Shown piece after piece: positions 44,939 through 63,099 of a stretch of 64,000 nt of DNA. A program made the position numbers and the translations under genes. Every line of letters begins with the position of its first letter. The first letter of the stretch is position 1. The notes below the pieces were generated by a model that did not search any database, was not told the DNA's origin, and saw only the letters and a list, made by a program, of their open reading frames with translations. Origin of the DNA: an uncultured Chloroflexia bacterium (GTDB lineage: Bacteria; Chloroflexota; Limnocylindria; Limnocylindrales; CSP1-4); assembly GCA_963835945.1 (NCBI GenBank), contig CAWIHR010000068.1, forward strand, positions 2,325 through 66,324, read 5' to 3'.

Positions 44939-45453
44939 TCGAGACGTTCGGCCGGCTCGACATCCTGGTCAACAACGCCGGCGTGACTCGCGACGACCTG
45001 ATCATGCGGATGAGCCTGGACGAGTGGCGCACCGTGCTCGAAGTGAACCTCTTCGGCGCCTTCTACGCGACGAAGGCAGTCCTGCGGCCCATGCTCCGGG
45101 CGCGCTCCGGGCGCATCGTCAACATCTCGAGCGTGTCGGGTCAAGCCGGCCAGGCGGGTCAGGCGAACTACTCGTCGTCGAAGGCCGGGCTGATCGGCCT
45201 GACGAAGGCCACCGCGCGCGAGGTCGGCAGTCGCGGCATCACCTGCAACGCGATCGCCCCCGGCTTCGTCACCACCGACCTGACGCGCGACCTGCCTGAG
45301 GCGCTCCAGTCGCAGTTGCTGGCGCAGACCCCGCTGGGCCGCTTCGGAGCGCCGGACGAGATCGCCGCCGCGGTGGCGTTTCTCTGCTCCGACGAGGCCG
45401 CGTTCATCACCGGACAGGTGCTGGCGGTGGACGGCGGCCTGGTGATGATGTAG
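44704..45453 (+). CDS. fabG: 3-oxoacyl-ACP reductase
   Basis: VTGGARGIGRAI, NNAGV, and the SDR catalytic region SSVSGQAGQAGQANYSSSKAG are present. Confidence 0.9.
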   Translation: MIDLSDKSAIVTGGARGIGRAIVLRLARQGADIAFLDRGPVESAEATRGDVEALGRRCFWVEGDVSDPEAAPALVARTVETFGRLDILVNNAGVTRDDLIMRMSLDEWRTVLEVNLFGAFYATKAVLRPMLRARSGRIVNISSVSGQAGQAGQANYSSSKAGLIGLTKATAREVGSRGITCNAIAPGFVTTDLTRDLPEALQSQLLAQTPLGRFGAPDEIAAAVAFLCSDEAAFITGQVLAVDGGLVMM

Positions 45454-46721: not shown

Positions 46722-46727
46722 TTGGGC

Positions 46728-47705: not shown

Positions 47706-47968
47706 AGCACCGGCACCTCGTCCACGAGGACTTCACCCTGGCCGTCATCGATGACATCCTCGATCGTGGCACGCTCGTGGATTGGACCCCGTTGCTACGC
47801 GAGATTCGGCGCGACCCGAATGGGCCAGTGGCGGGACGAGTTGCGGACGTCATCGAGCACCACGCGATGTATGGCACCACGCGTGCTTGGGCCCGTTTCC
47901 TCCACGCCGAGCGATCAAGGGGCGCCGCCCCGCCCGACGGCGTCGGTGAGCCCAGATCAGGGGCCTGA
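47702..47968 (+). CDS. Hypothetical 88-aa protein translationally coupled to the XRE-NTase gene
   Basis: The ATG overlaps the upstream TGA (ATGA). It reads MKHRHLVHEDFTLAVIDDILDRGTLVDWTPLLREIRRDPNGPVAGRVADVIEHHAMYG. No motif was recognised. Confidence 0.45.
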   Translation: MKHRHLVHEDFTLAVIDDILDRGTLVDWTPLLREIRRDPNGPVAGRVADVIEHHAMYGTTRAWARFLHAERSRGAAPPDGVGEPRSGA

Positions 47969-48206
47969 CCGCGGCGCACTCGTCCGGGCACACGCGAATG
48001 GGGACGCTTCGACCCGGCACTCCGCCCGTGAGCAGGGGAGGGTCACATTCCGGTTCCTCGCCAGGTCGCGGCCATTATGTTTCGTCTGTCGCTATGTGCG
48101 CCGATCACAATCGGCGTGACTTCGCGCGGCCTGATTCGCCACAATTCCGTGCAACGCGCCCATCGCGCCGCGCAAGCCACGCCCGACCCCGCTCAGCGCC
48201 CCCAGC

Positions 48207-48452
48207 GAGGTGTCCGCGTGATCGATCTGTCCGACAAGAGCGCCATCGTCACCGGCGGTGCGCGCGGAATCGGGCGCGCCATCGTGCTACGCCTGGCTCG
48301 CCAGGGCGCGGACATCGCGTTCCTGGACCGAGGGCCCGTCGAGAGCGCGGAGGCGACCCGCGGCGACGTGGAGGCGCTCGGCCGGCGCTGCTTCTGGGTC
48401 GAGGGCGATGTGAGTGACCCGGAGGCGGCCCCCGCGCTCGTCGCGCGCACGG
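48207..48452 (+). repeat. Direct repeat copy 2 (246 bp)
   Basis: See copy 1. Similarity ends abruptly after gcgctcgtcgcgcgcacgg. Confidence 0.9.
48218..48452 (+). pseudogene. Truncated duplicate of the fabG 5' end (78 codons)
   Basis: VIDLSDKSAIVTGGARGIGRAIVLRLARQGADIAFLDRGPVESAEATRGDVEALGRRCFWVEGDVSDPEAAPALVART is followed by unrelated sequence. Confidence 0.85.
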
Positions 48453-48728
48453 CAAGAGACGGCCCCACGCAATACGGGACCAGGGGCCGCCGGGACACGG
48501 GTAGCCGTGGTGCTGGACGGGCGCGCTACCATTCCCGCTGAGCGCGGTCGGCGCGTAGGCCGGGTGATCGGGGACGTATCGGGCGATCGACGCAGCACGA
48601 AGACGAAGGAGTGGGTCGCGGGAAGGTCGTATCCGTCCCGCGTGATGTAGCGTCGAGGCGCCAAGGTGTGGCAGACTGCGGATCACAGGCGCGGGTATCC
48701 GAGCTTGCCGGCCGTCCGCGAGCCGGGG

Positions 48729-49529
48729 ATGGACCGCCGCAGGGGGCGGGCCGTCGAGGGCCTACCCGGAGGACGCGTGCAGAACAGCGTCTGGGATGAG
48801 CGTGAGCTTGTCCGACGATGCAAGGAAGGCTCCGAGGCGGCCTACGCTGAGCTGGTCCGCCAGCACGGTGTCCGTCTCGTCACGCTCGCGTACCGCCTAA
48901 CGGGCAGCCGCGAGACGGCCGAGGACGTGGTCCAGGAGACCTTCCTCGCCGCCTTCCGTGCCATGGAGCGGTTCGAGCCGAAGCCGGCGCTCGCTCCTTG
49001 GCTGACGACCATCGCCGTGCGGTTCGCCTCGAAAGCGACCACGCGCCAGCCCCGTCCGACCTCCCTCGACGCGCTGATGGGGTCAGACCCCACGGATGGC
49101 GGCCCGGCCTTCCAAGTGGTATCGACCGCGCCCGACCCCCATGCCAGCGCTGAGGCCGCCGAGATCCGCGCGGAGGTCCAGCGCGCGCTCGACACACTGC
49201 CGTTCAAGCAGCGGTCGGCGGTCGTGCTGCGGCTCGTCATCGGGATGGACTACGCCGAAGCTGCCCGCGCCATGGACGTGCCGCTCAACACATACAAGAG
49301 CCTGCTCCTGCGCGGGACTCGGCAGCTGCGCGAGACCCTAGGGCCGCGTGTTGTCGGGCCCCAGGCGGGGGACGGCGTCCCGGCCGAGGACGCGGCTATC
49401 ACCGTGCCGCTCGAGCCCACGTCGAGCGCGGGTCGCGACGACGGCAGGAATTCCGCCCTCATTGCTCGTCCACCGCTCCGAGCCCCTATCGACCGCGAGC
49501 CGGTCGAGATGGCGGCCGAGTCGGAGTAG
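48729..49529 (+). CDS. ECF-type RNA polymerase sigma factor (second copy in the window)
   Basis: Region 2 reads AYAELVRQHGVRLVTLAYRLTGSRETAEDVVQETFLAAF. Region 4 reads QRSAVVLRLVIGMDYAEAARAMDVPLNTYKSLLLRGTRQLR. The start could be 48666, 48729 or 48777. Confidence 0.85.
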   Translation: MDRRRGRAVEGLPGGRVQNSVWDERELVRRCKEGSEAAYAELVRQHGVRLVTLAYRLTGSRETAEDVVQETFLAAFRAMERFEPKPALAPWLTTIAVRFASKATTRQPRPTSLDALMGSDPTDGGPAFQVVSTAPDPHASAEAAEIRAEVQRALDTLPFKQRSAVVLRLVIGMDYAEAARAMDVPLNTYKSLLLRGTRQLRETLGPRVVGPQAGDGVPAEDAAITVPLEPTSSAGRDDGRNSALIARPPLRAPIDREPVEMAAESE

Positions 49530-49564
49530 CTGCTGCGGAACCCGACCGCGCCTCCCGAGGAAGA

Positions 49565-49593
49565 TTGACCATTCTACGTTGTGAACGTAGGAT
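49565..49593 (+). promoter_or_regulatory. Sigma-70-like promoter with a palindromic operator, predicting a leaderless transcript for the MNT/HEPN pair
   Basis: TTGACC (49565-70), a 17-nt spacer, then TAGGAT (49588-93), then 6 nt, then ATG 49600. The spacer contains CTACGTT-gtg-AACGTAG (49574-49590). Confidence 0.5.
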
Positions 49594-49599
49594 TGCTGC

Positions 49600-50469
49600 A
49601 TGGTCTCGATCTTCTCCTCGCATCGCGCGCTCGAGGCTCTGGCGGCGCTGGAACAGCGCGGCGAAGCCGGCCTCCGCTTGGCCGAGGTTGCCAAGGCCGT
49701 GGGCGCGCCCGTCTCGAGCACGCAGGTCGCCCTCGGCGTGTTGATGGAGGACGGCCTGGTTTCGACGGGGTCCACGCGTCCTCCCATGTATCGGATCGCG
49801 CGCGACGAGCGCGACTCTACGGAGAAGATCCTGGATGTCGCCATGCGGCTTGCCGACGGGGCTCGACTGCTGCACGCCGCGCTGCGCGTTAATCGTGCGG
49901 TCGAGTTCGCTGCCGACGACGCAGCGGGGTTGCTGCTCGTCATCCGATGGGACGCTGAGCCGCCCGACGAGGTTCTCCTCGACCGAATGCTGCGACGCAT
50001 CGATCTCGAGATCGCCCGCTTCGGCCACGACGAAGCGCGGGAGCGGCTGCGCGCCGGGGCGTCGCTGCGCGAGCGCGCCAGCCACGGTCGGGTCATTGTC
50101 GGCTCGGTGGACCGCTCATTCCCCCACCCGTTCCGCCATGGGTCTCCCGACGCGCAGCCGCTGGGCCGTCTCAATCCGGCGGTTGCTCGTCCGTCGCGCA
50201 GCGCCCTCGCTCGCATCGCTCGCCGGTTCGGGCTGTCCGAGGTTCGAGTCTTTGGCTCGGCCGTGCATGCGGACTTCCGGTCTGACTCGGACATGGACGT
50301 CATGGTCCGGCGGAAGCCCGGCATCCGGCGGACGCTCGAAGAAGAGCTCTCGCTGCGTCGCGCCCTCGAGGACCTGCTGGACCGGGACGTGGACGTGGTG
50401 GACGCACGCGTGCTCCGTCGGCCCATCCGGGAGAAGGTCGAGTCCGACGGGGTGATCCTCTATGGATGA
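49600..50469 (+). CDS. Winged-HTH N-terminal region fused to a minimal nucleotidyltransferase (MNT) domain; putative antitoxin/regulator
   Basis: The N-terminus is LRLAEVAKAVGAPVSSTQVALGVLMEDGLVS. The C-terminus is RVFGSAVHADFRSDSDMDVMV (G-S..S-D-x-D) with RRPIREKVESDGVILYG. At 289 aa it is longer than the roughly 100-140 aa typical of MNT proteins. Confidence 0.7.
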   Translation: MVSIFSSHRALEALAALEQRGEAGLRLAEVAKAVGAPVSSTQVALGVLMEDGLVSTGSTRPPMYRIARDERDSTEKILDVAMRLADGARLLHAALRVNRAVEFAADDAAGLLLVIRWDAEPPDEVLLDRMLRRIDLEIARFGHDEARERLRAGASLRERASHGRVIVGSVDRSFPHPFRHGSPDAQPLGRLNPAVARPSRSALARIARRFGLSEVRVFGSAVHADFRSDSDMDVMVRRKPGIRRTLEEELSLRRALEDLLDRDVDVVDARVLRRPIREKVESDGVILYG

Positions 50470-50890
50470 CCGGGACCGACAACACCTCCGCAACCTCATC
50501 GCGCATGCGCAGGCGGCGATCGGATACACGACCGCGCACGGTCGCGGCTGGTGGAAGAACGCGGAGACGCTCGATGCCGTCCTGATGCGGATCTCGCAGG
50601 TCAGCGAGGCCGCGACCAGGACCTCGCCCGAAGCGTTGGCGGAAGTGCCCGGCGTCGTCTGGCGAGACGTCAAGGGCGTGCGTGCCAGGATCGTGCACGA
50701 TTACCAGTCCATCGACGTGCTCGTGATCCGCGGCGTAGTTGCCCGTCAGCTCCCGCGCCTGGTCGCACGCGTGGAGCGGGCGCTTGCCGCGGACGAGAGG
50801 CGCAGACTGCCGCCCGACACGCTTTCCCTAGATGCCCCGCATACCGCTGCTCAGCCCCGGCGACGACCGGGTGGGCAGGCCTCGGCGTGA
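50462..50890 (+). CDS. HEPN-domain (DUF86-type) protein; putative toxin partner of the MNT
   Basis: The ATG overlaps the MNT gene by 8 nt. The R-x4-H motif lies in GVRARIVHDYQSIDVLVI. Confidence 0.7.
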   Translation: MDDRDRQHLRNLIAHAQAAIGYTTAHGRGWWKNAETLDAVLMRISQVSEAATRTSPEALAEVPGVVWRDVKGVRARIVHDYQSIDVLVIRGVVARQLPRLVARVERALAADERRRLPPDTLSLDAPHTAAQPRRRPGGQASA

Positions 50891-50975
50891 ACGCCGTGGG
50901 GTCACCCCGCGGCCGACCCATGACGAAGGTACTCCAAGCCGGGGCTGCAACCTTTCACGGGCATCGTGGCTTTCT

Positions 50976-51764
50976 ATGAATGTGACTACCTGCGCGGCTG
51001 CCCAGGACCTGATCGACGCCTTCGTGACCGGAGGCCTCCCGGACCCGGCTGCCACGTCGCTCGCCGACCACGTGCGGACCTGTCCTGCCTGCGCCGCGCG
51101 CCTCGGCAGCATTACTCGCCTCGTGGAGCTCCTAGCCGCACTTCCCGACGTGCCACCTACTCCTGACTTCGACGAGCGTGTCATGCTGGCCTCGCTCGCG
51201 GACCGGCGTCGGCGCCACGAGCATCGCAACTGGTTGGCCGATCTGTGGACGCAGATCCTGCGCGGCACGGTGCGCACGACGGGCACGTTCATGGCCACGG
51301 TCGCCATCGTTGCGGTCCTCGCCGTCGGTGGCGTGTGGGCGGCCTCGAACCTCGTGCCGGGCTTCGCCCAGCAGGTGGGCCTCGCGCCGCAGCCGACGCC
51401 GAGGCACGTGGCGGTCACGCTCGCGACGCCGTCTCCCACCGCGACTCCGGCGGCGAGGGCCACGCCCGCGCCGCTCGTCGTCGCGGCGACCACGAGACCC
51501 ACACCGGCGCCCACGCCTTCTCCCACCCAGCGGCCCACGCCCGCCGCGACGACGAGCCCGACCCCTTCGCCATCGCCTAGCCCGACCCCGGCACCCACTA
51601 GCACCGTGGCTGCTCAAACTGTCACACCACCGCCGTCCGCCTCGGCCACGCCGACCCCGACCGCGTCACCATCGCCCACACGCAAGCCGCGCCGCTGCCC
51701 GCCGGGCACCGCGTGCTACTCACCTACCCCGACGCCGGGTGCGGCGTCTCCCACATCGCCGTAA
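50976..51764 (+). CDS. zf-HC2 anti-sigma factor with a TM helix and a Pro/Thr-rich extracytoplasmic tail
   Basis: The H-x3-C-x2-C motif is in ADHVRTCPACAARL. The TM helix is GTFMATVAIVAVLAVGGVWAA. A PT-rich tail of about 130 aa follows (TPAPTPSPTQRPTPAATTSPTPSPSPSPTPAPT). Confidence 0.75.
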   Translation: MNVTTCAAAQDLIDAFVTGGLPDPAATSLADHVRTCPACAARLGSITRLVELLAALPDVPPTPDFDERVMLASLADRRRRHEHRNWLADLWTQILRGTVRTTGTFMATVAIVAVLAVGGVWAASNLVPGFAQQVGLAPQPTPRHVAVTLATPSPTATPAARATPAPLVVAATTRPTPAPTPSPTQRPTPAATTSPTPSPSPSPTPAPTSTVAAQTVTPPPSASATPTPTASPSPTRKPRRCPPGTACYSPTPTPGAASPTSP

Positions 51765-51922
51765 CAGCGAGGCGGGCAGTGCCCGTCTCGTCGTTCCGGG
51801 CCTTGCGCAAGGCGTTGTTGTACGTGTTACCGGGGTCCACGCAAAGGAGGGTGGAAGGAAGCCCCGGACCCGGCCCTGCGGGGTCGGACCATCAGCCCAA
51901 TCTCTCTAGGAGGTCTACGGAC

Positions 51923-54900
51923 TTGGGAATCACTAAGAGGGCGATCAGCGTCGGCGTCACTGCCACGATGCTCGCCTCACTCATTGGCGCAGCATTCGCT
52001 GGCGGCGCGGCCGCCGCTACCATGTCTGTCACGACCGAGCTGACGACCCAACCGATCAGCTCGATCAACGCACTTCCGACCGGAACCGCACTGGTCTCCT
52101 TCGTGCCGGTGCAACAGGTCGGCCCCAGCACGACCATCGATGTCAACTTCGGCGGCGGCCTCGGGACCATCGATCCCACGCCGGCCGATTGGCACCTGCA
52201 GCAAGGCACCACCGACGTCGCCTTCACGCTTGCCCCAACGGTCAGCACCAACGGGCAGGTCATTGGCTTCGTGGTGCCCGCTGGCACGACGCTTAATCCG
52301 GCGATCGCCGTGAGCATCGTCGCACAGACCCTCAATGAGGTCGACTACGGCACGAAGGCCGGCACCTTCGACATCACCGTGACCACGCCGCTCGGAGATA
52401 CCGGGTTCGCGACGTACACGGTCACGCCAGGGGCGGCAGCACTAGGCACCGTCTCGGCCAGCCCGACGTCCGTTGCGGCGGACGGCGTTAGCACCTCGAC
52501 CATCACCGCGACGGTCACCGATGCGTCCGCCAACCCGGTCGCAGGCGTGACCGTCAACTTCGCAAAGACCGGATCCGCTGTCCTCTCGGCGGCTTCCGCG
52601 GTGACCAACGCCAGCGGCGTTGCCACAGTCACCGTGACGGATGCCACCGTCGAGTCCTCAACGATCACGCCGACGGCAACGGGCGTTACGTTTACGCCCC
52701 TCACCGTGGCGGTCTCCTTCACCGCTGTGTCGGCCTCGGTGACCTGCACGCCCTCGGGCGGCCCCATCGGGAACGGCGCTCCAGTGAGTTGCGTGTACAC
52801 GCCCGGCAATCCGCTGACCACAGTAAGCTGGACCTCGACGAACTTCACGCCGACAACCAGCAGCACCGATAGCCAGACGTTCACCGCGGCCAACATGAGC
52901 TCGAGCACGGTCACCGGGACCATCACGGCCACCGGTTCGGGCGGGCTCGTCGCGACCTTCACCTATAGCATTAGCCCAACTGCCGTGGCTGCCCCGGGTG
53001 CGCCTACGACGGCTGGCACGATCACCCTGTCCAATACGGTCTCCATCCCGCAGGGGAGCAAGACCCCCGTCACCCTCGGCACGTACACCTTCACCGAAGG
53101 CACGGCGGGTGACTGGCAGGCTAACGACTGGGTGCAGGTGTGCTTCGCCGACAATGCGGGCGCAACCAACACCATGACCCTCGCAGGCGGAGTCGTCACC
53201 GGACCCGGTGCGCTCGACTTCACCGCGGTGGGCGCGGGCCTGTCGATTAGCAACGGCCCGCCCTGCTTCAAGGTGACGCTCGGCGGGAGCAGCACAGGCG
53301 TGGGTGCCTACCTGGAGTCGTTCCAGGTCAGCGGCCTGACCCTGACGGGCGTGGGCCCGACCGGGCTTGTCGCTGCACCCGGCACCATCGTGGGACCTGG
53401 CAGCACCTCTTACGCCACCTACACGTCCTCCATGCATGCGCTGACCCCGGCCGGTGTCTACACCGCGTACTTCGGCGGCGTTAGCGCCACCGCGAGCGGC
53501 ACGCTCGCCGATGCGTACAACTCGTCGAGCCCCGGGGTCGAGCCGGTCGTCGTCAACATGACGGCGGGCAGCAAGGCGTTCCAAACCCCCGGCACGCTGG
53601 TCGTGGGTGGCGCGAAGGCCGAGTCCGCTCCCATCGTCGCAGTCAGCACCGTCGTCGGCTCCCTCTGCGGCACCTTCACGCTTCTGGGCAACCAGGAGTG
53701 CCTGACCGTCGACTTCGCCAATAGCCACAGCGTGGGCGACCCACTCAGCGAGAGCATCTCCGGCCTGTCCGGCACTGCGCCCTCCCCGGGCTCGGTGAGT
53801 GAAGGGCTCGCACTGGCTCTGTATCCCTCTGGCGCAGCTGTCCCGCAGCTCCGCATCGGTGTCACCGATCAGAAGCCGGACAGCGTCAGCCTCTCTGAGC
53901 AGGCCGGCTCCAATGGCGTGATCGCAGTGGGCACGGTCATCACGCTGACCGCGCCCGCGGGGGTGCTCTTCACGAGCGCACCCATCCTTGACCCGGCCTC
54001 CTTTGAGTGCCCGGCGGTGGTCTATGCTGGGACCACCTATGAGGCCTTCCAACTGAACTCCAACATCGCGACGCTGTCGCTCGATCGGTCCAGCGCGACC
54101 TTCACCGTCGAGTACGCCGATCCGGCCTTCACCGTGAGCGGCGCGTCGAGCAACTGCGTCACCAGTCTCGTGTTCGACATGCAGTACGACGTGGCGTCGT
54201 CGAGCGTCGCGGGCGGCGCGATCAATCTGGCCGTGACGGCCGGCGCGATCCCCGTCGTCCCGGCGACCATCGAGAATGCCAGCGTCGGCGCGGGGATCGT
54301 CGTGAACGCCACGGCCCCCACCATCTCCATCGGACAGAATGACCAGGCCCTCGGCACGGTCAACATCGTCGAGAACGCGGCTGGGGCCCTCAGCGCGTCC
54401 GCCAATACGGACACGTTCTTCGTGTGCCTGACCAGCGGCGAGTACTTCACCCGACCCCCGTGGGCGGTCGTGACGGCCGGTAACCTGTTGCTCGGCCTGA
54501 ACGGCGTCCTGACGGGTGCTGGCGTGACCCAGTCGGCCGGCGTGCCGGTCAACATCTCGGGGCCTGGCCTCATCGTCAGCGCACCCAGCTACGCTAACCA
54601 GGCCTGCTATGGCTGGACCGTCTACAGCGCGAGCACCACGGCCTCGACCATCGCGATCGAGGGCGTGAGCGCATCGGGCACACCGACCGCCACGGCGCAC
54701 GTTAACGTGCCGACGACCGAACCGGTCGGGCTCGGTGGACTTGTCGCGGGAACGGCGCTGACGCCCGGACCCACGTACATGGCCATCGGCACCGCGTTCA
54801 GCCTGTCTTCTACCGCCGGCAACCTGATCAACATCGCGACCGTCGCCGTCCGGGCGTTTTCGTCCGGGATCACGGTCACCGCGCTCAGCCAGCCCTACAT

Positions 54901-55693
54901 CGCCCCAGGGACCGTGGCGGGCCCGGCCGGCAACATCAGCTTCGCTGAAACCGGCCCAAACCTCCTCGTTGCCAACGAGGAGATCGAGTGCAACCTGGTT
55001 CCGAACTTCCTCCAGGAGCAATTGCCGGAGCAGTTCGCGTGGGCGAACTCCAACGTGCTGCCGATCGTGAGCACCGGCGCCACGACCGGTCTGCAGGCGC
55101 ACCTGGTCAACACCGGCTCCACCTTCTTCACGCTCATGGTCGACCAGGCAGCAACTAACGGCTTGGGCGTGATCACGGTCAGCAACATCGAGTACAACGT
55201 GGTGTCCGACGCCCCGACGGGCAACGTGCTCATCGAGTGCTTCAACGGCACCGCCGATACCAGCGGCACCCTCGACCAGATCACCGCAACGCTCGGGGCA
55301 GACTTTGATCAGTACGTCTCGAACGCGATCATCGGCACCGCCCCGGTCTTGGGGAAGGTCGTGCTGTCGGCTGACTCGTCGCTCAGCATGAGCGGCCCGT
55401 TCAGCGTCACCACGAAGATCGTCAAGAAGGGCGGGTCGATCACCTTCCGCGTCCGGAGCAATCCGACGCTGGCCGGCGATAAGCTCGGCGTGTGGATCGC
55501 GGTCAAGAGCTCCAGCGGCAGTTGGAGCAGCTACACGCCTCACACCAGCGTGACCACCGACGTGACCGGGACGGCGTACTACACGTACACCTTCACGAAG
55601 ACGGAGTGGCTCGCTTTCCGGTTCCACTTCGGTGGTAGTGCGAAGCTCGCCGCGGCGAACTCGTACCCGTCGGTGTTCGGCCGGGTCGTGTAA
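51923..55693 (+). CDS. Giant secreted surface (S-layer-like) protein, about 1257 aa, with a bacterial Ig-like domain
   Basis: AGGAGG lies 9 nt before TTG 51923. The signal peptide is GITKRAISVGVTATMLASLIGAAFAGGAAAA. A Big_1-like segment reads ASPTSVAADGVSTSTITATVTDASANPVAGVTVNF..NASGVATVTVTD (about 52440-52700). Composition is Thr/Ser/Ala/Gly-rich beta-type, with no Cys-poor enzymatic motifs. A strong hairpin follows the stop. Confidence 0.75.
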   Translation: MGITKRAISVGVTATMLASLIGAAFAGGAAAATMSVTTELTTQPISSINALPTGTALVSFVPVQQVGPSTTIDVNFGGGLGTIDPTPADWHLQQGTTDVAFTLAPTVSTNGQVIGFVVPAGTTLNPAIAVSIVAQTLNEVDYGTKAGTFDITVTTPLGDTGFATYTVTPGAAALGTVSASPTSVAADGVSTSTITATVTDASANPVAGVTVNFAKTGSAVLSAASAVTNASGVATVTVTDATVESSTITPTATGVTFTPLTVAVSFTAVSASVTCTPSGGPIGNGAPVSCVYTPGNPLTTVSWTSTNFTPTTSSTDSQTFTAANMSSSTVTGTITATGSGGLVATFTYSISPTAVAAPGAPTTAGTITLSNTVSIPQGSKTPVTLGTYTFTEGTAGDWQANDWVQVCFADNAGATNTMTLAGGVVTGPGALDFTAVGAGLSISNGPPCFKVTLGGSSTGVGAYLESFQVSGLTLTGVGPTGLVAAPGTIVGPGSTSYATYTSSMHALTPAGVYTAYFGGVSATASGTLADAYNSSSPGVEPVVVNMTAGSKAFQTPGTLVVGGAKAESAPIVAVSTVVGSLCGTFTLLGNQECLTVDFANSHSVGDPLSESISGLSGTAPSPGSVSEGLALALYPSGAAVPQLRIGVTDQKPDSVSLSEQAGSNGVIAVGTVITLTAPAGVLFTSAPILDPASFECPAVVYAGTTYEAFQLNSNIATLSLDRSSATFTVEYADPAFTVSGASSNCVTSLVFDMQYDVASSSVAGGAINLAVTAGAIPVVPATIENASVGAGIVVNATAPTISIGQNDQALGTVNIVENAAGALSASANTDTFFVCLTSGEYFTRPPWAVVTAGNLLLGLNGVLTGAGVTQSAGVPVNISGPGLIVSAPSYANQACYGWTVYSASTTASTIAIEGVSASGTPTATAHVNVPTTEPVGLGGLVAGTALTPGPTYMAIGTAFSLSSTAGNLINIATVAVRAFSSGITVTALSQPYIAPGTVAGPAGNISFAETGPNLLVANEEIECNLVPNFLQEQLPEQFAWANSNVLPIVSTGATTGLQAHLVNTGSTFFTLMVDQAATNGLGVITVSNIEYNVVSDAPTGNVLIECFNGTADTSGTLDQITATLGADFDQYVSNAIIGTAPVLGKVVLSADSSLSMSGPFSVTTKIVKKGGSITFRVRSNPTLAGDKLGVWIAVKSSSGSWSSYTPHTSVTTDVTGTAYYTYTFTKTEWLAFRFHFGGSAKLAAANSYPSVFGRVV

Positions 55694-55746
55694 GAGTCCA
55701 ACCCATGTAGCATCTCCGGCAGCCCACTGACGGGCTCCGGTAGACT

Positions 55747-55778
55747 GAAGGGCCGGGGCGGCAACGCCCCGGCCCTTC
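55747..55778 (+). terminator. Intrinsic-terminator-like hairpin after the giant gene
   Basis: GAAGGGCCGGGGCG-GCAA-CGCCCCGGCCCTTC is a perfect 14-bp stem. GCGTTCTCGTG follows. Confidence 0.7.
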
Positions 55779-55809
55779 GCGTTCTCGTGCGATCAGACGG
55801 AGGCTGCTC

Positions 55810-57426
55810 ATGCGACGGGTCTCTGGGGCGCTCGCGGCCGCCTGGGTGCTCGGCGGTGCGCTGCTCCTCGTCGCGCCAGCCCGGACGTCTGCCGTGTCCG
55901 CGACCGGCAACATCCCGGGCGTGCCCCTGCCCGCGCCCCAGGTGTCGGGGCAGCTGGGCGGCCCTATCTACGACGTCGTCTATTCGGTCGACGTCCCGGC
56001 GGCGCGCGTTCTCTTGGTCTCGCTGTCGGGGACGCCCGGGACCGACTTCGACCTGTATCTCTTCGATGCGACCGCCACGGACATCTACGCAGAGCCCCCC
56101 GTCGGCCTGGTCGACAGATCGACGGGACCCACCAGTACCGAGTCGCTCACGTACCCGACCATCGGCGGCGGGCGCTTCTACGTCGATGTGAGCAGCGCGA
56201 CGAACGCCGAGGGCATGTTCCAACTCAGCGTGCAGGTTGCCACGGACACCACCCCGCCGCACGTCACGCTCAGCCTGGACGGCGGCGCGCCGGCCACGAA
56301 CGCCACCGCCGTGACGGCGACCGTGGTCGCGACCGACGACCTTTCTGGGGTGGTGGACATGCAGCTGAGCGGCGACGGCGCCAACTGGTCGTCTTGGCAG
56401 CCGTACACACCCACGGTTCCCTGGATCTTCCCGGCCGGCGACGGCCCCAAGAGCCTGTGGGTGCGGGTCCGGGACGGGGCAGGCAACTTGTCATCCCTCG
56501 CGAAGGCCACCATCGAGCTCATCACGACCGCCCCGGTGGTGGTCGTGCGCGAACCCGATCCGGCCAGCCCTGTCACAGGAACCCTGCCCACGATCCGGGT
56601 CACTTTCTCGGAACCGATCCGGGTGTCGTCGTGGTTGAACTCAGGACTCCTGCTGCAGGACTTCTCGGGGACCGTGCTCTACGGAACGTATGGCTGGGAT
56701 GCCGCGACTAACACGGGCTCCTTCACGCCGGCCTCGCCTCTAGTGGCGGGGGCCGCCTACTCCGTCTCGCTGGGCAGTGTTGTCGATGAGGCCGGGAACC
56801 CCCTCGTACCGATTGGGACGTGGGTCATTCGCCCGATGATCGTCCCGGTTGTGACGATGAGCCTCTCGCCACGCTTGACCAGTGTCGGTTCCACAGTCGC
56901 CGTGTCGGGCCGCGTCGAAGGCGGGCTCGGGGCGCCAGTGGTCATCGAACGGGCTCTGGCCGGTGGCCCTTGGGTGCAATTCGTCACCGTCTTCCCGACG
57001 CAGGATGGCTCGTTCACGACCGGCGCCGCGATCAACGCCAACAGCAGTTTCCGGGCCGCCGTTGCGGCCACGTCGACCAGCACCGAAGCCACGAGCGTTC
57101 CAGTCCGAGTGCTCGCACGTCGGGGCGTGGCGCTCATAGGCATCAAGCCTTCGGTCAGTCATGGGGTCGCGGCGTACGCACGCCTCTCCCTGACCGCCAA
57201 GGTGACCCCATCTGATCCCGCTGTCTCGGTCACACTGTCCATTGACCGGTACACCGTTGGACGCGGGTACGTGCCGCAGGTCGCCCTGACCCGCTCCACG
57301 GTTGGTGGTCGATACACGTTCTCGTGGCGCCCCGCCCCGGGCTCGTATCGTGTCATCGTGACGACCGCACCCAGTCTTGCGTACGCCAACGGGCTCTCGC
57401 CCACGTACCGATGGGTGGTGCGCTGA
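55810..57426 (+). CDS. Secreted protein with a pre-peptidase C-terminal (PPC)-like domain and SbsA/Big_5-like Ig domains
   Basis: The signal peptide ends ARTSA-VSA. The PPC-like segment is VLLVSLSGTPGTDFDLYLFDATA..GGGRFYVDVSS. Then DTTPPHVTLSLDGGAPATNATAV..DMQLSGDGANWSSW follows. The Big_5-like segment is PTIRVTFSEPIRVSS..TNTGSFTPASPLVAGAAYSVSLG..VDEAGNPL. Confidence 0.7.
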   Translation: MRRVSGALAAAWVLGGALLLVAPARTSAVSATGNIPGVPLPAPQVSGQLGGPIYDVVYSVDVPAARVLLVSLSGTPGTDFDLYLFDATATDIYAEPPVGLVDRSTGPTSTESLTYPTIGGGRFYVDVSSATNAEGMFQLSVQVATDTTPPHVTLSLDGGAPATNATAVTATVVATDDLSGVVDMQLSGDGANWSSWQPYTPTVPWIFPAGDGPKSLWVRVRDGAGNLSSLAKATIELITTAPVVVVREPDPASPVTGTLPTIRVTFSEPIRVSSWLNSGLLLQDFSGTVLYGTYGWDAATNTGSFTPASPLVAGAAYSVSLGSVVDEAGNPLVPIGTWVIRPMIVPVVTMSLSPRLTSVGSTVAVSGRVEGGLGAPVVIERALAGGPWVQFVTVFPTQDGSFTTGAAINANSSFRAAVAATSTSTEATSVPVRVLARRGVALIGIKPSVSHGVAAYARLSLTAKVTPSDPAVSVTLSIDRYTVGRGYVPQVALTRSTVGGRYTFSWRPAPGSYRVIVTTAPSLAYANGLSPTYRWVVR

Positions 57427-57624
57427 TATGGCACGTACCCAGCGAGCGGGAGTCGCTGAGCGCGCCGGGACTGGGCGGTGATTCGCACGGCATCGGTTGG
57501 TTGTCAGTCGGCCTTAGTGGCATGCTGTGGGGCCGAAGGGCTCTGCCTATGAGCACCCGCTCGCGAGCAGAATATGTGGATCCTCTCGCAGTGACGGTGT
57601 GCCGCCCGTAATGGAGGTAAGGCA

Positions 57625-60293
57625 ATGAACGGATCCCGGAGCCGACGGCTTGTCGGCGTGTTCGCGGGAGCGGCCCTCGTCGCGCTCCTGCTTCCTGTGC
57701 CGGCCAGCGCGCAGCCACAGGAGATGCTCGTGTTTACGACGCAGCCGGGCGGCGGGGCCGCCGGGACCCCATGGGCTCAGCAGCCGGTCGTCAAGGTGTT
57801 GAACGAGCTGAACCAGCAGGTCGTCACCAGCGATAACTCGACGGTCGTCTACCTGACGATATCGGCCAACCCGGCCGCCGGCACGCTCACCTGCGCGGGC
57901 AACACGTACGAGACCGTCACCAACGGCGTGGCCGCCTTCAGCGGCTGTTCGATCAACACGGCGTCCACGAACCCCTACTCGCTCTACGCCACGAGTAGTG
58001 CTGGCTTTACGCCTGCTACGAGTGCGGGGTTCTATATCACCGGTGGATCGGGCGGCACGTCAAACCACCTCGTCTTCCAGACCGCGCCGAGCAGCGGGAC
58101 GCCGGGCACCCCCTTCTCGGTGGTCGTCTATGTCGAGAACGCCTCCAACGCGCTCGTCTCCGACACCTCGAGCATCACCCTCACCCTTGAGGGTGGAACC
58201 GGGGCCGGCGGGCTCGTCTGCACGCCCACCAACCCCGTGCAGGCAGTGGGTGGCGTGGCCAGCTTCTCCTGCTATGTCCAACTGGGCTCCACGAACCCCT
58301 ACTACCTGTACGCCACGAGTAGCTCTGGCTGGAACCCCGCTACGAGTGCGGGGTTCTTGATCGGCGCGGGGGCCAACCACCTCGTCTTCCAGACCGCGCC
58401 GAGCAGCGGGACGCCGGGCACCCCCTTCTCGGTGGTCGTCTATGTCGAGAACGCCTCCAACGCGCTCGTCTCGGACACCTCGAGCATCACCCTCACCCTT
58501 GAGGGTGGAACCGGGGCCGGCGGGCTCGTCTGCACGCCCACCAACCCCGTGCAGGCAGTGGGTGGCGTGGCCAGCTTCTCCTGCTATGTCCAACAGGGCT
58601 CCACGAACCCCTACTACCTGTACGCCACGAGTAGCTCTGGCTGGACCCCCGCCACGAGTGCGGGGTTCTTGATCGGCGCGGGGGCCAACCACCTCGTCTT
58701 CCAGACCGCGCCGAGCAGCGGGACGCCGGGCACCCCCTTCTCGGTGGTCGTCTATGTCGAGAACGCCTCCAACGCGCTCGTCTCGGACACCTCGAGCATC
58801 ACCCTCACCCTTGAGGGTGGAACCGGGGCCGGCGGGCTCGTCTGCACGCCCACCAACCCCGTGCAGGCAGTGGGTGGCGTGGCCAGCTTCTCCTGTTATG
58901 TCCAACAGGGCTCCACGAACCCCTACTACCTGTACGCCACGAGTAGCTCTGGCTGGACCCCCGCCACGAGTGCGGGGTTCTTGATCGGCGCGGGGGCCAA
59001 CCACCTCGTCTTCCAGACCGCGCCGAGCAGCGGGACGCCGGGCACCCCCTTCTCGGTGGTCGTCTATGTCGAGAACGCCTCCAACGCGCTCGTCTCGGAC
59101 ACCTCGAGCATCACCCTCACCCTTGAGGGTGGAACCGGGGCCGGCGGGCTCGTCTGCACGCCCACCAACCCCGTGCAGGCAGTGGGTGGCGTGGCCAGCT
59201 TCTCCTGTTATGTCCAACAGGGCTCCACGAACCCCTACTACCTGTACGCCACGAGTAGCTCTGGCTGGACCCCCGCCACGAGTGCGGGGTTCTTGATCGG
59301 CGCGGGGGCCAACCACCTCGTCTTCCAGACCGCGCCGAGCAGCGGGACGCCGGGCACCCCCTTCTCGGTGGTCGTCTATGTCGAGAACGCCTCCAACGCG
59401 CTCGTCTCGGACACCTCGAGCATCACCCTCACCCTTGAGGGTGGAACCGGGGCCGGCGGGCTCGTCTGCACGCCCACCAACCCCGTGCAGGCAGTGGGTG
59501 GCGTGGCCAGCTTCTCCTGCTATGTCCAACAGGGCTCCACGAACCCCTACTACCTGTACGCCACGAGTAGCTCTGGCTGGACCCCCGCCACGAGTTCCTC
59601 GTTCTTGATCGGCGCGACCACCGAGCAGCTTGTCTTCGTCACCCCGCCGGGTGGCGGCGCGGCCGGGGCCGTGTGGTCCCAGCAGCCGGTGGTGGCTGTG
59701 GAGTACAACACTGGCGGCGTCGTCAGCACCGATAACTCGACAGTCGTTTACCTGGCGATCGCGACCAATCCGGGGTCGGCGGCACGCTTTCCTGCACGGG
59801 CGGCATTAACTATCTGCGTGTCACCAACGGCTACGCCGACTTCAGCGGCTGCTCGATCAGCGCGGGCTCCGCGTCGAGCTACTACACGCTCCAGGCCACC
59901 AGCAGCCCGTCGTGGACACCGGCCACGAGCAGCGCGTTCTACATCTCGGGCGGACTAACGCGGGTGACGCTCACCGACGCCATCGCCCCCGGGGTGGTGA
60001 AGGTCGGGACGTCCGGGTTCGGCACAAAGAGCCTCGTCGTCGCCGCGAATAGCTATGTCACCATCCTAGTAGGCACGACCCCGCAGTTGGCGGCGGGGAC
60101 CACCGTCACGATCTGGGTCAAGTCGAAGACGGTCGGCTGGCATCAGGTAACGAGTCGGCTCGTCGCTTCTGACGGCACGATCCGCTACTACGCGCGCGTC
60201 AACGGGTGGACCGGCTACCAAGTCAGGTTCGCCGGCAATGCGACCTACGCTCCGGCAGCGAGCCACGGGAGGATTGCCACCAACCCGAGCTGA
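57625..60293 (+). pseudogene. Secreted tandem-repeat surface protein (7 Ig-like modules plus a C-terminal module) with one frame break near nt 59775
   Basis: GGAGG lies before ATG 57625 and a signal peptide is present. The modules run type-A, five type-B of 104 aa each, then type-A. After NPGS the frame shifts, and GTLSCTGGINYLRVTNGYADFSGCSI..SAFYISGG..TVTIWVKSKTVGWHQV..VRFAGNATYAPAASHGRIATNPS-stop continues in the frame of ORF 59964-60293. Confidence 0.75.
58063..59622 (+). repeat. Five tandem copies of a 312-bp unit, nearly identical at the DNA level and in frame (104 aa each)
   Basis: Units start at 58063, 58375, 58687, 58999 and 59311. I noticed only a few substitutions: ctg versus cag in unit 1, tgc versus tgt in units 3-4, and gtctcc versus gtctcg in unit 1. 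The antisense ORF and the +1 ORFs also repeat every 312 nt in the supplied track. Confidence 0.95.
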
Positions 60294-60332
60294 CCCACCG
60301 CTTGGGCTAGGCCGCGGGCGCGGCCTGCTGGA

Positions 60333-60365
60333 CTGGAGCCGTGTCTCGTGGCACGGCTCCAGTTT
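60333..60365 (+). terminator. Rho-independent terminator after the repeat-protein gene
   Basis: CTGGAGCCGTG-tctcgtgg-CACGGCTCCAG is followed by TTT. It lies 40 nt after the stop at 60293. Confidence 0.75.
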
Positions 60366-60559
60366 CGTGTTAAGCATGCACGGTCGGTCGGCCGCCCCAA
60401 CCAGGCCCAGACACTGCGACACGACCACGCGGGCAAGTCGGCGACGGTCAGCGGCAGCGGAAGGACGTACAGCGTTCGCCGGAGTCTGGGTAACCCCCGA
60501 TCCAACGCCTTGGCCGAGACGAGCGCCACCCCGTCCCCCGACCAGGCGGGCGCCCGTCT

Positions 60560-61010
60560 GGTGCGCCTTACCCTGCGGGAGGTGCGGCCGGCGACGGGTC
60601 CCAGCTTGCCCTCTTCGCGCTCTTCGACTTCCTTGCCTGATCACCGATGACGAGGGAGGACGCCCTCGCCCGCGAAGCGGATCACCGGCGCCACGCCGAG
60701 ATCGAGGGCGCCATCCGCGATCTCAAGTACGACAACCTCAACCAGCTGCCGTCGGGGAAGCTCGCCGCGAACGGGGCCTGGCAGGCCGTGCCGGCGATCG
60801 CCCAACGTGGCCGGTGGACGGCCCGCATCGGGACGCCCCGCGGGCATCGTCACCACCAGGACCCTGCGCAGGCGGCGCTTCAGCCTGGCCGGGCGGTTCA
60901 CACCCCCTCGGCCCGCCGCCTGAGCCTGCCTCTGCCGGCCCGCTGTGGCCCCCGATGGGGAGCTTTGCCGCCGCCCTGATGCGCCTCCGGACGCCCCTCG
61001 CCCGCTCGGG
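60560..61010 (+). mobile_element. 3' remnant of an IS1380-like DDE transposase gene, multiply frameshifted
   Basis: LITDDEG, EADHRRHAEIEGAIRDLKYDNLNQLPSGKLAANGAWQAV, IVTTRTLRRRRFSLAGRF and LWPPMGSFAAALMRLRTP are spread over three frames. Together they resemble the conserved C-terminal third of IS1380-type transposases. No catalytic N-terminal part is present. Confidence 0.55.
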
Positions 61011-61572
61011 GATTCGGGCGGAAACCTGTCCGCGTCCGCTCCGGCGGCGCTCCAGCAAGCCGGCTCGGGCCTGCCAGCGGTGCTGCGGCGACCGCCACCA
61101 CGCCATCTGGTCGTCGGGCTCATCTGAGTAGCCGGCCAGAGGGCCGCTTCGGCTCCTACCGACCCCGGTCAGGCGGAACTACGTGGATCCGGCATCAGTG
61201 TCGCGGATCACCGTCGGCTTGGTCATTGGCACCGTCTGCCCAAGTCGCGAGCGAACAGGCCGGTGAATCGAGGCAGACGGTGATGGTCTTTGGGGTCGAC
61301 CACCGGGAGGAGCCGCTTGTCCTCAGGTCGGAGACGCAGGACCCGGCGCGGGTCCGGATGACCCCGGAACGGAATACCGAGCGGGGTGTTCGCCGCGGCG
61401 GCTGATGAATCGGGCCCGAGCCAAGCCGGCGAGCTGGGTGGCGTTGCCGAGAGGGACCGCGGCGCCGGGCGTTAGGTCGAGCAGCCAGCGCTCGTGGTCG
61501 ATTGCGGCGACAGCGTCGGTAGTGCCGTCGTCCTCGTAGCGGTTCGCACCCTGCCTCGCCAGGACACAAAGA

Positions 61573-61609
61573 GACGACGGGCGGGGGTCAGGGTCCCTCG
61601 CCCGTCGTC
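61573..61609 (-). terminator. Hairpin terminator for the minus-strand surface-protein gene
   Basis: On the minus strand, GACGACGGGCG-n15-CGCCCGTCGTC is followed by TCTTTGTGT. It lies 48 nt after the stop. Confidence 0.6.
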
Positions 61610-61656
61610 AAATCGCGGTGGGGGCAGCGAGCCCCCGGGTGGAGTCGGGTTGCGGG

Positions 61657-63099
61657 TTAGCGCTCGATGTGCTCCAGGAGGCGGCCGCGGAGGCGGGTGG
61701 CTACCACGAGCGCCAGAGAGGCGGCACCGAGGGCGCCGAGGAGCAGCAACAGGCTGCTGCCACTGGGTGAGCCACTGTCACCCCCGAGGGTGCTGGTCGG
61801 CGGCACGGAAGGGGCGGGCGTGCCCGTCGCGCCAGCCACGCTGCCCGTCTGCGTTGGAGTCGGCGTCGGCGGAGTCGGCGTGGGCGGAGTCGGCGTGGGC
61901 GGAGTCGGCGTCGGCGGAGTCGGCGTCGGCGGAGTCGGCGTCGGCGTCGAACAGAGCCACGGCTTGAGTTCACACACCGGCGACGGCGTGCGGGCGGGAA
62001 CCACCACCGTCTCCGCACCGCAGGCCGAAGTGGCCGACTTGTTGCTGTCGTCGCCGCTGTAGCTGGCGGTCCACTCGTAGGTGCCCGCTGCCGTGGTCGT
62101 GAAGCCCAACGGGGTGCTGTAGCTGCCGTCGCCGGTGATGTCACTGGCGGTATAGGTGTAGATGGGGTCACCCGAGCAGGTCAGATTGTCAGGGCCGTAG
62201 AGGCCGAAGACGATTGAGCCAGTCGGGGTCGAGCCGCCCGCAAGGATGGCCGTGTCGGTGAGCGTCACGCCCACCTCCCCGCCGGCGCTCGGGGTCGTGG
62301 TGAGCGACGGGCTGCTGGGAGCGGGGGGCGGCGCCGTGACTACTTCCGGCTCGCCGCAGCCCGCGCTGGCCGGACTATTGCCGCTGTCGTCGCCGCTGTA
62401 GCTGACGCTCCAGTCGTAGGTGCCCTTCGCCGTGGTCGTGAAGCCCGTCGGGGTGCTGTAGCGGCCGTCGCCGGTGATGTCGCTGGCGGTATAGGTGTAG
62501 ATGGGGTCACCCGAGCAGGTGAGATTGTCAGGACCGTAGAGGTCGAACGTGATGGTGCCGGTCGGGTTGAAGGCGCCCGACAGGATGGCCGTGTCGGTGA
62601 GCGTCACGCCCACCTTGCCGCCGGTGCTGGGGCTGGGGGTCGTCGACAAGGCGGGCTGGCATCCCGTCGGCAGGGTCGCCGTGGCGTACCACGGACCTGG
62701 GTAATTGCCTTTATCACCCCACACGAAATTCGAGGCCTCGAGGCTGAGTGAGGTGTAGGGGCTGCTCGGGGTGAAGGAGCCGGACCAGAACCAGCTGTCG
62801 GCACTTGAGAAGGACGCGGCGGTGGTGACCGGGGTGTAGTTGCTGCTGCCATTGATAGCGTATGAAATGGTGAAGGTCGCGTCCGCCTGCCCAATGGTGT
62901 CGACGGTGGTCCAGTCAGTTACCGTGTACTCGACGACGCCGGTGCAGGTCGCGCTGGCTGCCACCGACGCTGAGTGCCCCAAGGCGATGCCGGCCGTGGC
63001 CGGAATGAGCACCGCGAGAAGAGCGACCACTGTGGCCAAAGTGAGCGCGCGGGCGCGGACCCGCGCCCGCGCGCTGGGCGGCGTGAAGAGTGCGTGCAT
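61657..63099 (-). CDS. Secreted surface protein with two duplicated Ig-like modules, a (PTPTP) repeat stalk and a C-terminal hydrophobic anchor
   Basis: The signal peptide is ALTLATVVALLAVLIPATAGIALG. Two modules of about 113 aa share VGVTLTDTAIL.G...PTG.I.F.LYGPDNLTCSGDPIYTYTASDITGDG.YSTP.GFTTTA.GTY.W..SYSGDD. The stalk is TPTPTPPTPTPPTPTPPTPTPPTPTPPTPTPT. The tail is SSLLLLLGALGAASLALVVATRLRGR. A GAGGGGAG RBS is present. Confidence 0.75.
   Translation of the reverse strand: MHALFTPPSARARVRARALTLATVVALLAVLIPATAGIALGHSASVAASATCTGVVEYTVTDWTTVDTIGQADATFTISYAINGSSNYTPVTTAASFSSADSWFWSGSFTPSSPYTSLSLEASNFVWGDKGNYPGPWYATATLPTGCQPALSTTPSPSTGGKVGVTLTDTAILSGAFNPTGTITFDLYGPDNLTCSGDPIYTYTASDITGDGRYSTPTGFTTTAKGTYDWSVSYSGDDSGNSPASAGCGEPEVVTAPPPAPSSPSLTTTPSAGGEVGVTLTDTAILAGGSTPTGSIVFGLYGPDNLTCSGDPIYTYTASDITGDGSYSTPLGFTTTAAGTYEWTASYSGDDSNKSATSACGAETVVVPARTPSPVCELKPWLCSTPTPTPPTPTPPTPTPPTPTPPTPTPPTPTPTQTGSVAGATGTPAPSVPPTSTLGGDSGSPSGSSLLLLLGALGAASLALVVATRLRGRLLEHIER
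61856..61945 (-). repeat. Six tandem copies of a 15-bp unit (GGAGTCGGCGTSGGC) encoding the PTPTP stalk
   Basis: Read directly from the sequence. It is in frame within the 61657-63099 gene. Confidence 0.9.

Follow-up and report, generated by a model that had tools for sequence, protein, structure and literature searches.

The gene cluster

We analysed a stretch of 64,000 nucleotides from an uncultured Chloroflexia bacterium (phylum Chloroflexota, class Limnocylindria; assembly GCA_963835945.1, contig CAWIHR010000068.1, positions 2,325 to 66,324), hereafter called the window, which carries a cluster of + strand genes for an extracytoplasmic function (ECF) sigma factor, an anti-sigma factor and three exported proteins, referred to here as P1, P2 and P3 (Table 1). 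As judged from sequence comparison, P1, P2 and P3 all end in one homologous domain family, which is about 105 amino acids (aa) long, is present as a tandem pair in P2 and is here called the module. The cluster had been pointed out in an initial annotation of the window, which described three consecutive + strand genes for secreted proteins with immunoglobulin (Ig)-like domains, linked to an ECF sigma factor and forming a variable surface island.

Both the zf-HC2 anti-sigma factor and the ECF sigma factor that had been placed upstream of the surface protein genes were confirmed by Pfam matches above cutoff. The two genes have the domains expected of an ECF sigma factor and a zf-HC2 anti-sigma factor, and their adjacency is interrupted here by an MNT-HepT pair, in which the nucleotidyltransferase and HepT-like genes are adjacent and overlapping, as in toxin-antitoxin systems of type VII. 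The start of the anti-sigma gene is ambiguous and lies either at 50832 or at a Met codon at 50976. The spacer between the anti-sigma gene and P1 is 158 nt long.

P1, which is identical to the public protein P0038, and P2 are intact open reading frames (ORFs), as annotated. P3, in contrast, is not a single ORF. Frame 0 (57625-59958) is lost after approximately 59772 and the tail forms a separate ORF of 109 aa (59964-60293). Homologues align to P3 in different frames on either side of 59773-59777, indicating a 1-nt frameshift, and addition of one base to the G run CCGGGGTC restores a protein of 889 aa. The public record shares the break, P0002 being the 109-aa ORF. A homopolymer sequencing error is plausible, and as likely as a real pseudogene, because contigs of related metagenome-assembled genomes (MAGs) obtained with long reads are full of frameshifts; the closest related contig is riddled with them as well. 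A second single-base frameshift in the window is located in a full-length dehydrogenase copy at approximately 44689-44692.

Each of the three proteins starts with one hydrophobic segment followed by an Ala-rich site, in agreement with the signal peptides noted previously, and outside these segments only two short hydrophobic stretches were found, both in the middle of P1. Regular expressions and hydrophobicity analysis of the three proteins detected no lipobox, no LPXTG motif with a transmembrane tail and no C-terminal transmembrane segment. SLH, CWB2, LysM and other wall-binding domains in Pfam were absent from the whole proteins (E ≤ 0.1) and from the isolated modules (E ≤ 10). The reported lack of LPXTG (by regular expression), SLH and CWB2 (by Pfam) or another known wall anchor was thus borne out.

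The Ig-like domains described earlier were recovered by Pfam as Big_1/Invasin_D3 in P1 and as PPC, an OmpL47-type/Big_3_3-like domain and Big_5 in P2, and the 104-aa repeats ascribed to P3 correspond to a tandem array at the DNA level. P1 is acidic, with an isoelectric point (pI) of 4.17, and rich in Thr, Ala, Val, Gly and Ser. All three proteins have a pI of 4.2-5.3, contain few charged residues and consist entirely of beta structure, a composition which is adhesin-like or coat-like.

Table 1. Coordinates of the genes and elements of the cluster in the window (+, forward strand; RBS, ribosome-binding site).
Feature	Position	Strand	Evidence or remark
Partial short-chain dehydrogenase (SDR) copy, 123-aa N-terminal fragment	48149-48526	+	Adjoins sigma gene
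ECF-type sigma factor	48666-49529	+	Pfam Sigma70_r2 and Sigma70_r4_2; NCBIfam TIGR02937 sigma70-ECF, 77.6 bits (cutoff 42.9)
MNT (helix-turn-helix (HTH) plus nucleotidyltransferase)	49600-50469	+	Pfam Polbeta/NTP_transf_2 with HTH_IclR
HepT toxin-antitoxin partner	50462-50890	+	Pfam HepT-like; gene overlaps MNT
zf-HC2 anti-sigma factor, Pro/Thr-rich extracytoplasmic tail	50832-51764	+	Pfam zf-HC2, 26.1 (cutoff 22.2)
Structured leader, from anti-sigma stop codon to P1 start	51754-51922	+	Nucleotide conservation, RNAalifold, covariance model
P1, 1256 aa, TTG start, AGGAGG 8 nt upstream	51923-55693	+	ORF intact, RBS
Big_1 domain of P1	52448-52708	+	Pfam
C-terminal module of P1	55346-55690	+	Family-profile hmmsearch, E 2.7e-27; extreme C terminus
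GC hairpin 3' of P1, terminator- or attenuator-like	55747-55778	+	Perfect 14-bp stem GAAGGGCCGGGGCG/CGCCCCGGCCCTTC
P2, 538 aa, exported, five beta-sandwich domains	55810-57426	+	ORF intact
Two tandem module-like domains of P2, aa 338-438 and 436-538	56821-57423	+	hhalign against module family
P3 repeat protein, 889 aa if repaired	57625-60293	+	ORF calls, homologue alignment
312-bp tandem array of P3, 5.3 copies, 97% identity	57954-59616	+	Encodes the 104-aa repeats
C-terminal module of P3, ends SHGRIATNPS	59955-60290	+	hmmsearch, E 4.6e-42; P3-family alignment with invariant tail
IS1380-family transposase fragment	60647-60979	+	NCBIfam NF033539, E 3.2e-7; profile positions 325-368 of 419 only

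Homology of the C-terminal module

The proposal that P1 and P3 share a C-terminal module did not hold at the level of BLASTP, as a comparison of the two tails with composition adjustment was not significant (E = 26). BLASTP being uninformative for these tails, it was replaced by shuffled Smith-Waterman alignment and by profile comparison, and with these the proposal stands. The tails align with a Smith-Waterman score of 72 against 32.2 ± 6.4 in composition-preserving shuffles, none of 2000 shuffles reached 72, and internal segments of the same proteins scored at most 38. A hhalign comparison of the P1-type and P3-type tail families, which are small (two and seven tails, respectively), gave a probability of 93.3% with E = 2.8e-7 over 82 columns at 28% identity. 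Chance similarity of the tails is therefore essentially excluded.

The copies in P2 are undetectable in pairwise comparison with the tails of P1 and P3 (p 0.06-0.45), and slices of P2 were compared by hhalign with a module profile of 134 sequences. Residues 338-438 are a clear copy (probability 96.8%, E = 2.8e-10) and residues 436-538 a weak one (68.8%, E = 4.5e-5), consistent with the looser copies that had been suspected in P2. The three other beta-sandwich domains of P2 (PPC and two more), which served as a negative control, scored below 1% against the same profile.

The module had been thought to be undescribed, and the databases agree. Searches of Pfam and NCBIfam, also with permissive thresholds, returned no family for it, and sequences in the PDB gave chance hits only, to antibody chains (E at least 0.41). 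With the isolated module, no Pfam Big family scores even at E up to 10, and the models in Pfam and NCBIfam for the C-terminal domain of the type IX secretion system (T9SS) do not match it either. Its signature comprises SGF, P.LAG, IW, GW, DGT..YY, GW and SHGR, and the last strand ends in a basic residue. The motif F..G(D/N)..Y/A..S of the module is similar to the final strands found in common families of bacterial Ig domains.

Structure prediction with AlphaFold2 on the joint alignment yielded an eight-strand sandwich with a moderate predicted local distance difference test score (pLDDT) of 72.6. In a Foldseek search the model retrieved generic Ig-like folds, namely RhoGDI, CARDB, SoxY and antibody V domains, at template modelling (TM) scores of 0.55-0.63. 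The modelled fold is thus that of an Ig-like/E-set beta-sandwich.

A word-indexed search for homologues of the P1 tail yielded one relative only. When 1.84 billion protein representatives were searched with a profile, 228 relatives of the module were identified at E ≤ 1e-3. The position of the module could be compared for 156 copies in 154 proteins of the family. The large majority (133 copies, approximately 85%) are C-terminal, that is, within 12 residues of the C terminus, eight are internal and 15 are N-terminal. The N-terminal copies directly follow the signal peptide, and this class includes annotated I42 protease inhibitors. Proteins with the module are also found away from any P2, and a distant variant (P0119) occupies the equivalent position in an equivalent cluster.

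A distant copy was also seen inside a CHAP-Dockerin_1-PD40 protein in a further locus (L050, 5179-8307; Logan SRR29763697). By eye, the gene neighbourhood of this locus looks actinobacterial rather than Limnocylindria-like, and for this reason the module family may not be confined to Limnocylindria.

P2, for which 242 homologues were found, was modelled by AlphaFold2 from 57 homologues as five beta-sandwich domains with a pLDDT of 90.6. Domain 4 has a pLDDT above 90 and the same number of strands as the model of the isolated module. The N-terminal PPC domain is near-invariant and is the most conserved part of the P2 family. Foldseek with P2 retrieved generic multi-Ig proteins, with an archaeal S-layer protein at rank 6, and the P2 profile weakly matches the S-layer protein SbsC via the Big_5 region.

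Conservation and variability of the locus

P2 orthologues were sought in one genome per species and their neighbours were identified by local profile searches. Full-length P2 orthologues (35-68% identity) were found in 41 loci, all in Chloroflexota MAGs labelled Limnocylindrales or uncultured Chloroflexia. The recurring gene order is dehydrogenase, ECF sigma factor, anti-sigma factor, P1-like, P2 and P3-like. A sigma orthologue is in the equivalent position in 25 related loci, and the anti-sigma factor, with an N-terminal domain that is 50-70% identical, always lies directly 5' of the P1-like gene. In at least 35 of the 41 Chloroflexota loci, an ORF that ends in the module stops just 5' of P2, and P3-type proteins with the 104-aa repeat adjoin P2 in 30 related loci, downstream and on the same strand in nearly all of them. 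The link of the ECF sigma/anti-sigma pair to the surface genes is therefore conserved synteny, found in at least 25 genomes, and not a local coincidence.

As locus and gene order are conserved across the class Limnocylindria, the island described in the initial annotation is not a mobile one. Of the two flanking features noted there, transposase debris is present on the right, in the form of the IS1380 fragment, and the toxin-antitoxin genes on the left were identified as the MNT-HepT pair. The pair is, however, not a private insertion, because the equivalent site between sigma and anti-sigma genes is occupied in two distant relatives, L005 (4936-6205; MNT 75% and HepT 80% identical to the window) and L018 (6016-7258; 71% and 57%). 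It is missing from the closest relatives, L001 and L002, and the P2 proteins of the three genomes that carry it are only approximately 40% identical. More divergent MNT/HepT copies were seen 5' of the dehydrogenase gene in six other loci. A gene for a GAF-GGDEF diguanylate cyclase is located 3' of the cluster in 12 related loci (for example L039, 15156-17960); it is absent from the window, in which the IS1380 fragment follows P3 instead.

The description of the locus as variable does hold for its content, that is, for the N-terminal half of P1, the repeats of P3 and the allelic type of the P1-P2 block relative to the regulators. Compared with the nearest relative (L002), identity is 68% for P2, 64% for the sigma factor and 62% for the P1 signal peptide. 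Residues 599-1256 of P1, module included, are approximately 35% identical, and residues 33-598 have no detectable counterpart in L002. The N-terminal half of P1 is hypervariable. The module itself is 64.5% identical between P1 and its L002 orthologue and is thus much better conserved than the rest of the protein. A domain block from the variable part of P1 is found again 27 kb away, in a predicted membrane-anchored paralogue: the gene at 24722-25771 (- strand) encodes a predicted lipoprotein (lipobox LLAAAC) whose mature part is 50% identical to P1 residues 348-629 (E = 2e-62). That this gene is a silent P1 cassette was considered and rejected, as it has its own lipoprotein signal.

Different parts of the cluster do not share one history of divergence when positions 48666-57426 of the window are compared with L005, L032 and L002. 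The sigma factor of L005 is 89% identical to that of the window, but P2 only 41%, and the P1 module of L005 is divergent too. For L002 the corresponding identities are 64% and 68%. These disagreements between sigma and P2 identities suggest that recombination has taken place in the cluster between the regulatory genes and the genes for surface proteins. P1-type and P3-type tails also swap gene positions (L036, L021 and L034), and in L036 the protein in the P3 position has a P1-type tail.

A structured leader upstream of P1

In the spacer between the anti-sigma gene and P1 the nucleotide sequence itself is conserved, although the proteins on either side are only 40-70% identical. RNAalifold predicts a hairpin H1 of 16 bp (51759-51799) that includes the stop codon of the anti-sigma gene, followed by a hairpin H2 of 5 bp (51800-51813), two further helices and the RBS. 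In the first alignment 94.9% of the cells were paired, versus 33-49% in slid controls, and 36 cells were compensatory, versus 12.9 ± 2.9 in shuffles, with none of 500 shuffles reaching 36. With a covariance model, each of 31 loci gave a single + strand copy, in every case at the junction of the anti-sigma gene and P1, and no copy was found elsewhere in 756 kb. Folding of the single sequence was not significant alone (z = -1.57), and a search of Rfam with positions 47500-61800 (E ≤ 1) gave no match to the leader beyond chance hairpin matches.

Metagenome sequences were searched with a 21-nt core pattern, which retrieved 75 stretches; the covariance model matches 62 of them, representing 54 distinct sequences. 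In these 54 sequences H1 is 99.1% paired, with compensatory changes at three pairs and frequent G-U pairs. One G-U pair (19:33) is present in 33 of them. As G-U pairs would not match in the opposite strand or in palindromic DNA, H1 is read as + strand RNA, and the possibility that H1 is an ECF promoter or the palindromic DNA site of a dimeric regulator was ranked lower. The conserved signal 5' of P1 is a structured leader which, on good comparative support, we consider a new candidate cis-regulatory RNA.

An ECF-like sequence, GTAAC-N18-CGTC, overlaps H1 at 51761-51787. Its chance expectation is 0.9 per window, and it is without counterpart 5' of the sigma genes. An enrichment search for dimer motifs upstream of 23 sigma genes and P1 yielded no shared promoter motif of the ECF type.

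P1-type genes start with TTG in all readable loci, namely 21 aligned genome loci and 43 of 43 metagenome loci, the latter being the recognisable starts among the 62 metagenome stretches that extend far enough downstream. The start is followed by a signal peptide whose nucleotide sequence is conserved. Downstream of P1, most of the related loci with a foldable spacer between P1 and P2 have a very strong GC hairpin in this spacer. The hairpin has the core GGCCGGGGC...GCCCCGGCC and a poor T tract, and usually a second hairpin is located 5' of it.

Other genes in the window

A full dehydrogenase copy (44630-45450), 97% identical to that of L002, is located 3 kb 5' of the fragment adjoining the sigma gene. 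An HTH-XRE gene (46722-47705) separates the full copy from the fragment, which suggests an insertion with partial duplication of the dehydrogenase gene.

The - strand gene at 61657-63099 encodes an exported protein of 480 aa with weak, sub-threshold Big_3_5-like repeats, a membrane anchor at the C terminus and a (PTPTP)n linker, for which a tandem repeat of 15 bp (61856-61946) codes. Within this genome it is an example of another mode of surface-protein retention. Downstream of a second ECF-type sigma gene (34925-35554) lies an ORF of 895 aa, and this region (34925-38087) may represent another sigma-linked pair with an envelope protein. A sigma-linked protein with an N-terminal module in L051 was not counted as a second ECF association, as a tRNA-like stretch, recognized by eye, separates the two genes.

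Discussion

The cluster is best read as the Limnocylindria version of a cell-surface protein operon, in which a sigma/anti-sigma pair precedes three Sec-exported beta-sandwich proteins. This is based on the conserved gene order, on a leader with compensatory and G-U pairs that occurs once per locus, on the conserved hairpin after P1 and on the adhesin-like or coat-like composition of the proteins. We further propose, tentatively and with a probability that falls somewhat short of an even chance, that the locus is a means, specific to this lineage, of retaining variable proteins at the cell surface, with the module as the shared attachment or assembly domain. In this proposal the module would be the cell-proximal part of P1, P2 and P3 and would retain them on the envelope without membrane anchor or sortase, by binding a conserved component of the envelope, which would be P2 or a polymer of the cell wall. 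The outward-facing parts would be the N-terminal ones, with the hypervariable region of P1 and the expanding repeats of P3. Expression would be tied to the ECF sigma/anti-sigma pair, and the amount of P1 compared with the neighbouring gene products would be determined by the leader together with the hairpin after P1.

Several observations lead to a role in attachment. The module is homologous in three proteins which show no other anchor, and it is better conserved than the rest of P1. It is portable, as tails swap gene positions and copies are also found N-terminally on I42-inhibitor proteins. Finally, a module-ending ORF precedes P2 in at least 35 of the 41 loci and the order sigma, anti-sigma, P1, P2, P3 is kept. 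Other observations weigh against this proposal. The pLDDT of the isolated module model is only moderate, the fold is generic and without a specific structural relative, and no ECF-type promoter motif common to the sigma genes and P1 was found. P1 also has 12 Cys residues, a TTG start and a codon usage that is unexceptional within the window, the first two being unusual in an S-layer protein of very high abundance. As an indicator of high expression, codon usage did not discriminate. P1 resembles S-layer proteins in being acidic, large (1256 aa), exported and without other anchor, and in having a leader before and a hairpin after its gene; it differs from them in its number of cysteines, which are few or absent in S-layer proteins, and in the lack of signals of very high expression. 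P1 is a possible S-layer protein, a view weakened by its cysteines, its TTG start and its ordinary codon usage.

The main alternative is that the module is a structural Ig-like spacer without special role, shared via duplication and domain shuffling within the cluster. We consider this doubtful, and it is the competing explanation to which we give most weight. P1, P2 and P3 are built almost entirely of domains with such a generic fold, and the motif F..G(D/N)..Y/A..S is what would be expected of a common bacterial Ig domain. However, a spacer does not readily explain why the module is conserved far more than neighbouring domains of P1 and why most copies are terminal. The family is also specific, as the other beta-sandwich domains of P2 do not score against it, and proteins with otherwise unrelated bodies all keep it.

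A more elaborate proposal is a surface-display system specific to Limnocylindria, in which P2 would form the base, P1 and P3 would be exchangeable, hypervariable subunits docking via the beta-sandwich, the ECF pair and the RNA element would exert control, and the P1-P2 cassette would be swapped between lineages as in antigenic variation. We regard this combination as rather improbable. Taken by itself, the idea that the module is a docking domain that binds P2 or other copies of the module, with P2 as the base and P1 and P3 as exchangeable outer coat subunits, is unlikely. Its logic would be comparable to that of dockerin-cohesin pairs or of S-layers made of two components. It would account for the almost invariant adjacency of a P1-type gene and P2, for the tandem module-like domains and near-invariant N-terminal PPC of P2, and for the joint divergence of the P1 module and P2 where the sigma factor does not diverge, as in L005. 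Linkage alone, however, predicts such co-inheritance, and module proteins occur away from any P2.

The initial annotation had also raised the possibility of a secretion determinant. A function of the module as C-terminal signal for secretion or sorting by a dedicated export machine, perhaps removed afterwards, is suggested by its size, its beta-sandwich fold and its mostly extreme C-terminal position, which resemble T9SS C-terminal domains, and by the N-terminal signal peptides that all carriers also have. T9SS domains are strictly C-terminal and single, and this does not apply to a module with 15 N-terminal copies after a signal peptide, eight internal copies and a tandem pair in P2. The N-terminal and internal copies argue against a position-dependent sorting signal. 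In addition, no sorting domain in Pfam or NCBIfam matches, the conserved cluster contains no secretion-machine genes, and Chloroflexota are generally regarded as lacking an outer membrane, so that we consider a sorting signal very unlikely. The view that the resemblance of the tails reflects biased composition (Thr/Ser/Ala/Gly/Val-rich strands) instead of homology, which the composition-adjusted BLASTP result would favour, has almost no probability left in view of the shuffles, the low scores of other segments, the significant profile comparisons with negative internal controls and the coherent, mostly terminal family retrieved by the joint profile.

The proposed attachment role can be compared with known systems. 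Surface proteins of monoderm bacteria use non-covalent wall-binding modules such as SLH, CWB2, LysM and WxL (PMC5817068). As in those systems, a conserved terminal module is common to otherwise unrelated exported proteins which have neither membrane nor sortase anchors, variation lies in the parts that would be exposed, and several carriers are located in one locus. In contrast to them, the module has no sequence match to these families and is a single Ig-like sandwich instead of the repeats typical of SLH and CWB2. With the C-terminal domain of the Bacteroidota T9SS (approximately 80-100 aa) it shares the beta-sandwich and the extreme C-terminal location in diverse Sec-exported surface proteins; it differs in the N-terminal, internal and tandem copies and in the absence of T9SS genes from the cluster, and the phylum and envelope are different.

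Two systems resemble the regulatory side. In Clostridium thermocellum, dockerin-cohesin display is regulated by sigI/rsgI pairs. There, as here, a sigma/anti-sigma pair is linked to exported proteins with a shared terminal module and a candidate scaffold, but the module of P1, P2 and P3 is an Ig-like sandwich and not Ca-binding like dockerin, and the anti-sigma factor has a low-complexity Pro/Thr tail and no sensor domain, unlike rsgI. In Mycobacterium tuberculosis, the ECF sigma factor SigK and the membrane anti-sigma factor RskA, of the zf-HC2 type, adjoin and control mpt70/mpt83. The Limnocylindria cluster likewise has an ECF sigma factor and a zf-HC2 anti-sigma factor next to genes for exported or surface proteins. 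The targets mpt70/mpt83 are FAS1-domain proteins and unrelated to P1, P2 and P3.

As an eight-strand sandwich the module is similar to generic Ig-like domains (Big_1, Big_3_5, Big_5, Big_12/13) and to the E-set folds CARDB and RhoGDI, and it shares the motif G(D/N)..Y/A..S in its last strands with Big_3_5. It is set apart from the Big families by its own signature, a strong bias for terminal positions and the lack of any Pfam Big score. Structured 5' untranslated regions are known to stabilise the mRNAs of abundant surface-layer proteins, for example slpA of Lactobacillus (PMC3666127). P1 similarly has a long structured leader before a gene for a large exported protein and a strong hairpin after it. 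Unlike in slpA, the anti-sigma gene has its stop codon within the first hairpin of this leader and translation of P1 would begin at TTG in every readable locus. The leader, which may serve as a stabiliser, a processing site or an attenuator, belongs to no Rfam family. A literature search found nothing on this cluster or on the envelopes of Limnocylindria.

Limnocylindria are abundant in soils and lakes, the kind of sample from which the related contigs originate, and are uncultured. For this class the locus supplies a class-wide set of markers for the surface proteome, made up of the module profile, P2 as conserved partner and the leader RNA. The module is a new family of domains in a system of a familiar kind, and it offers a testable candidate for the retention of large variable proteins in a lineage of Chloroflexota in which sortase or SLH systems are not obvious. 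The recombining surface block could matter for interactions with phages or predators.

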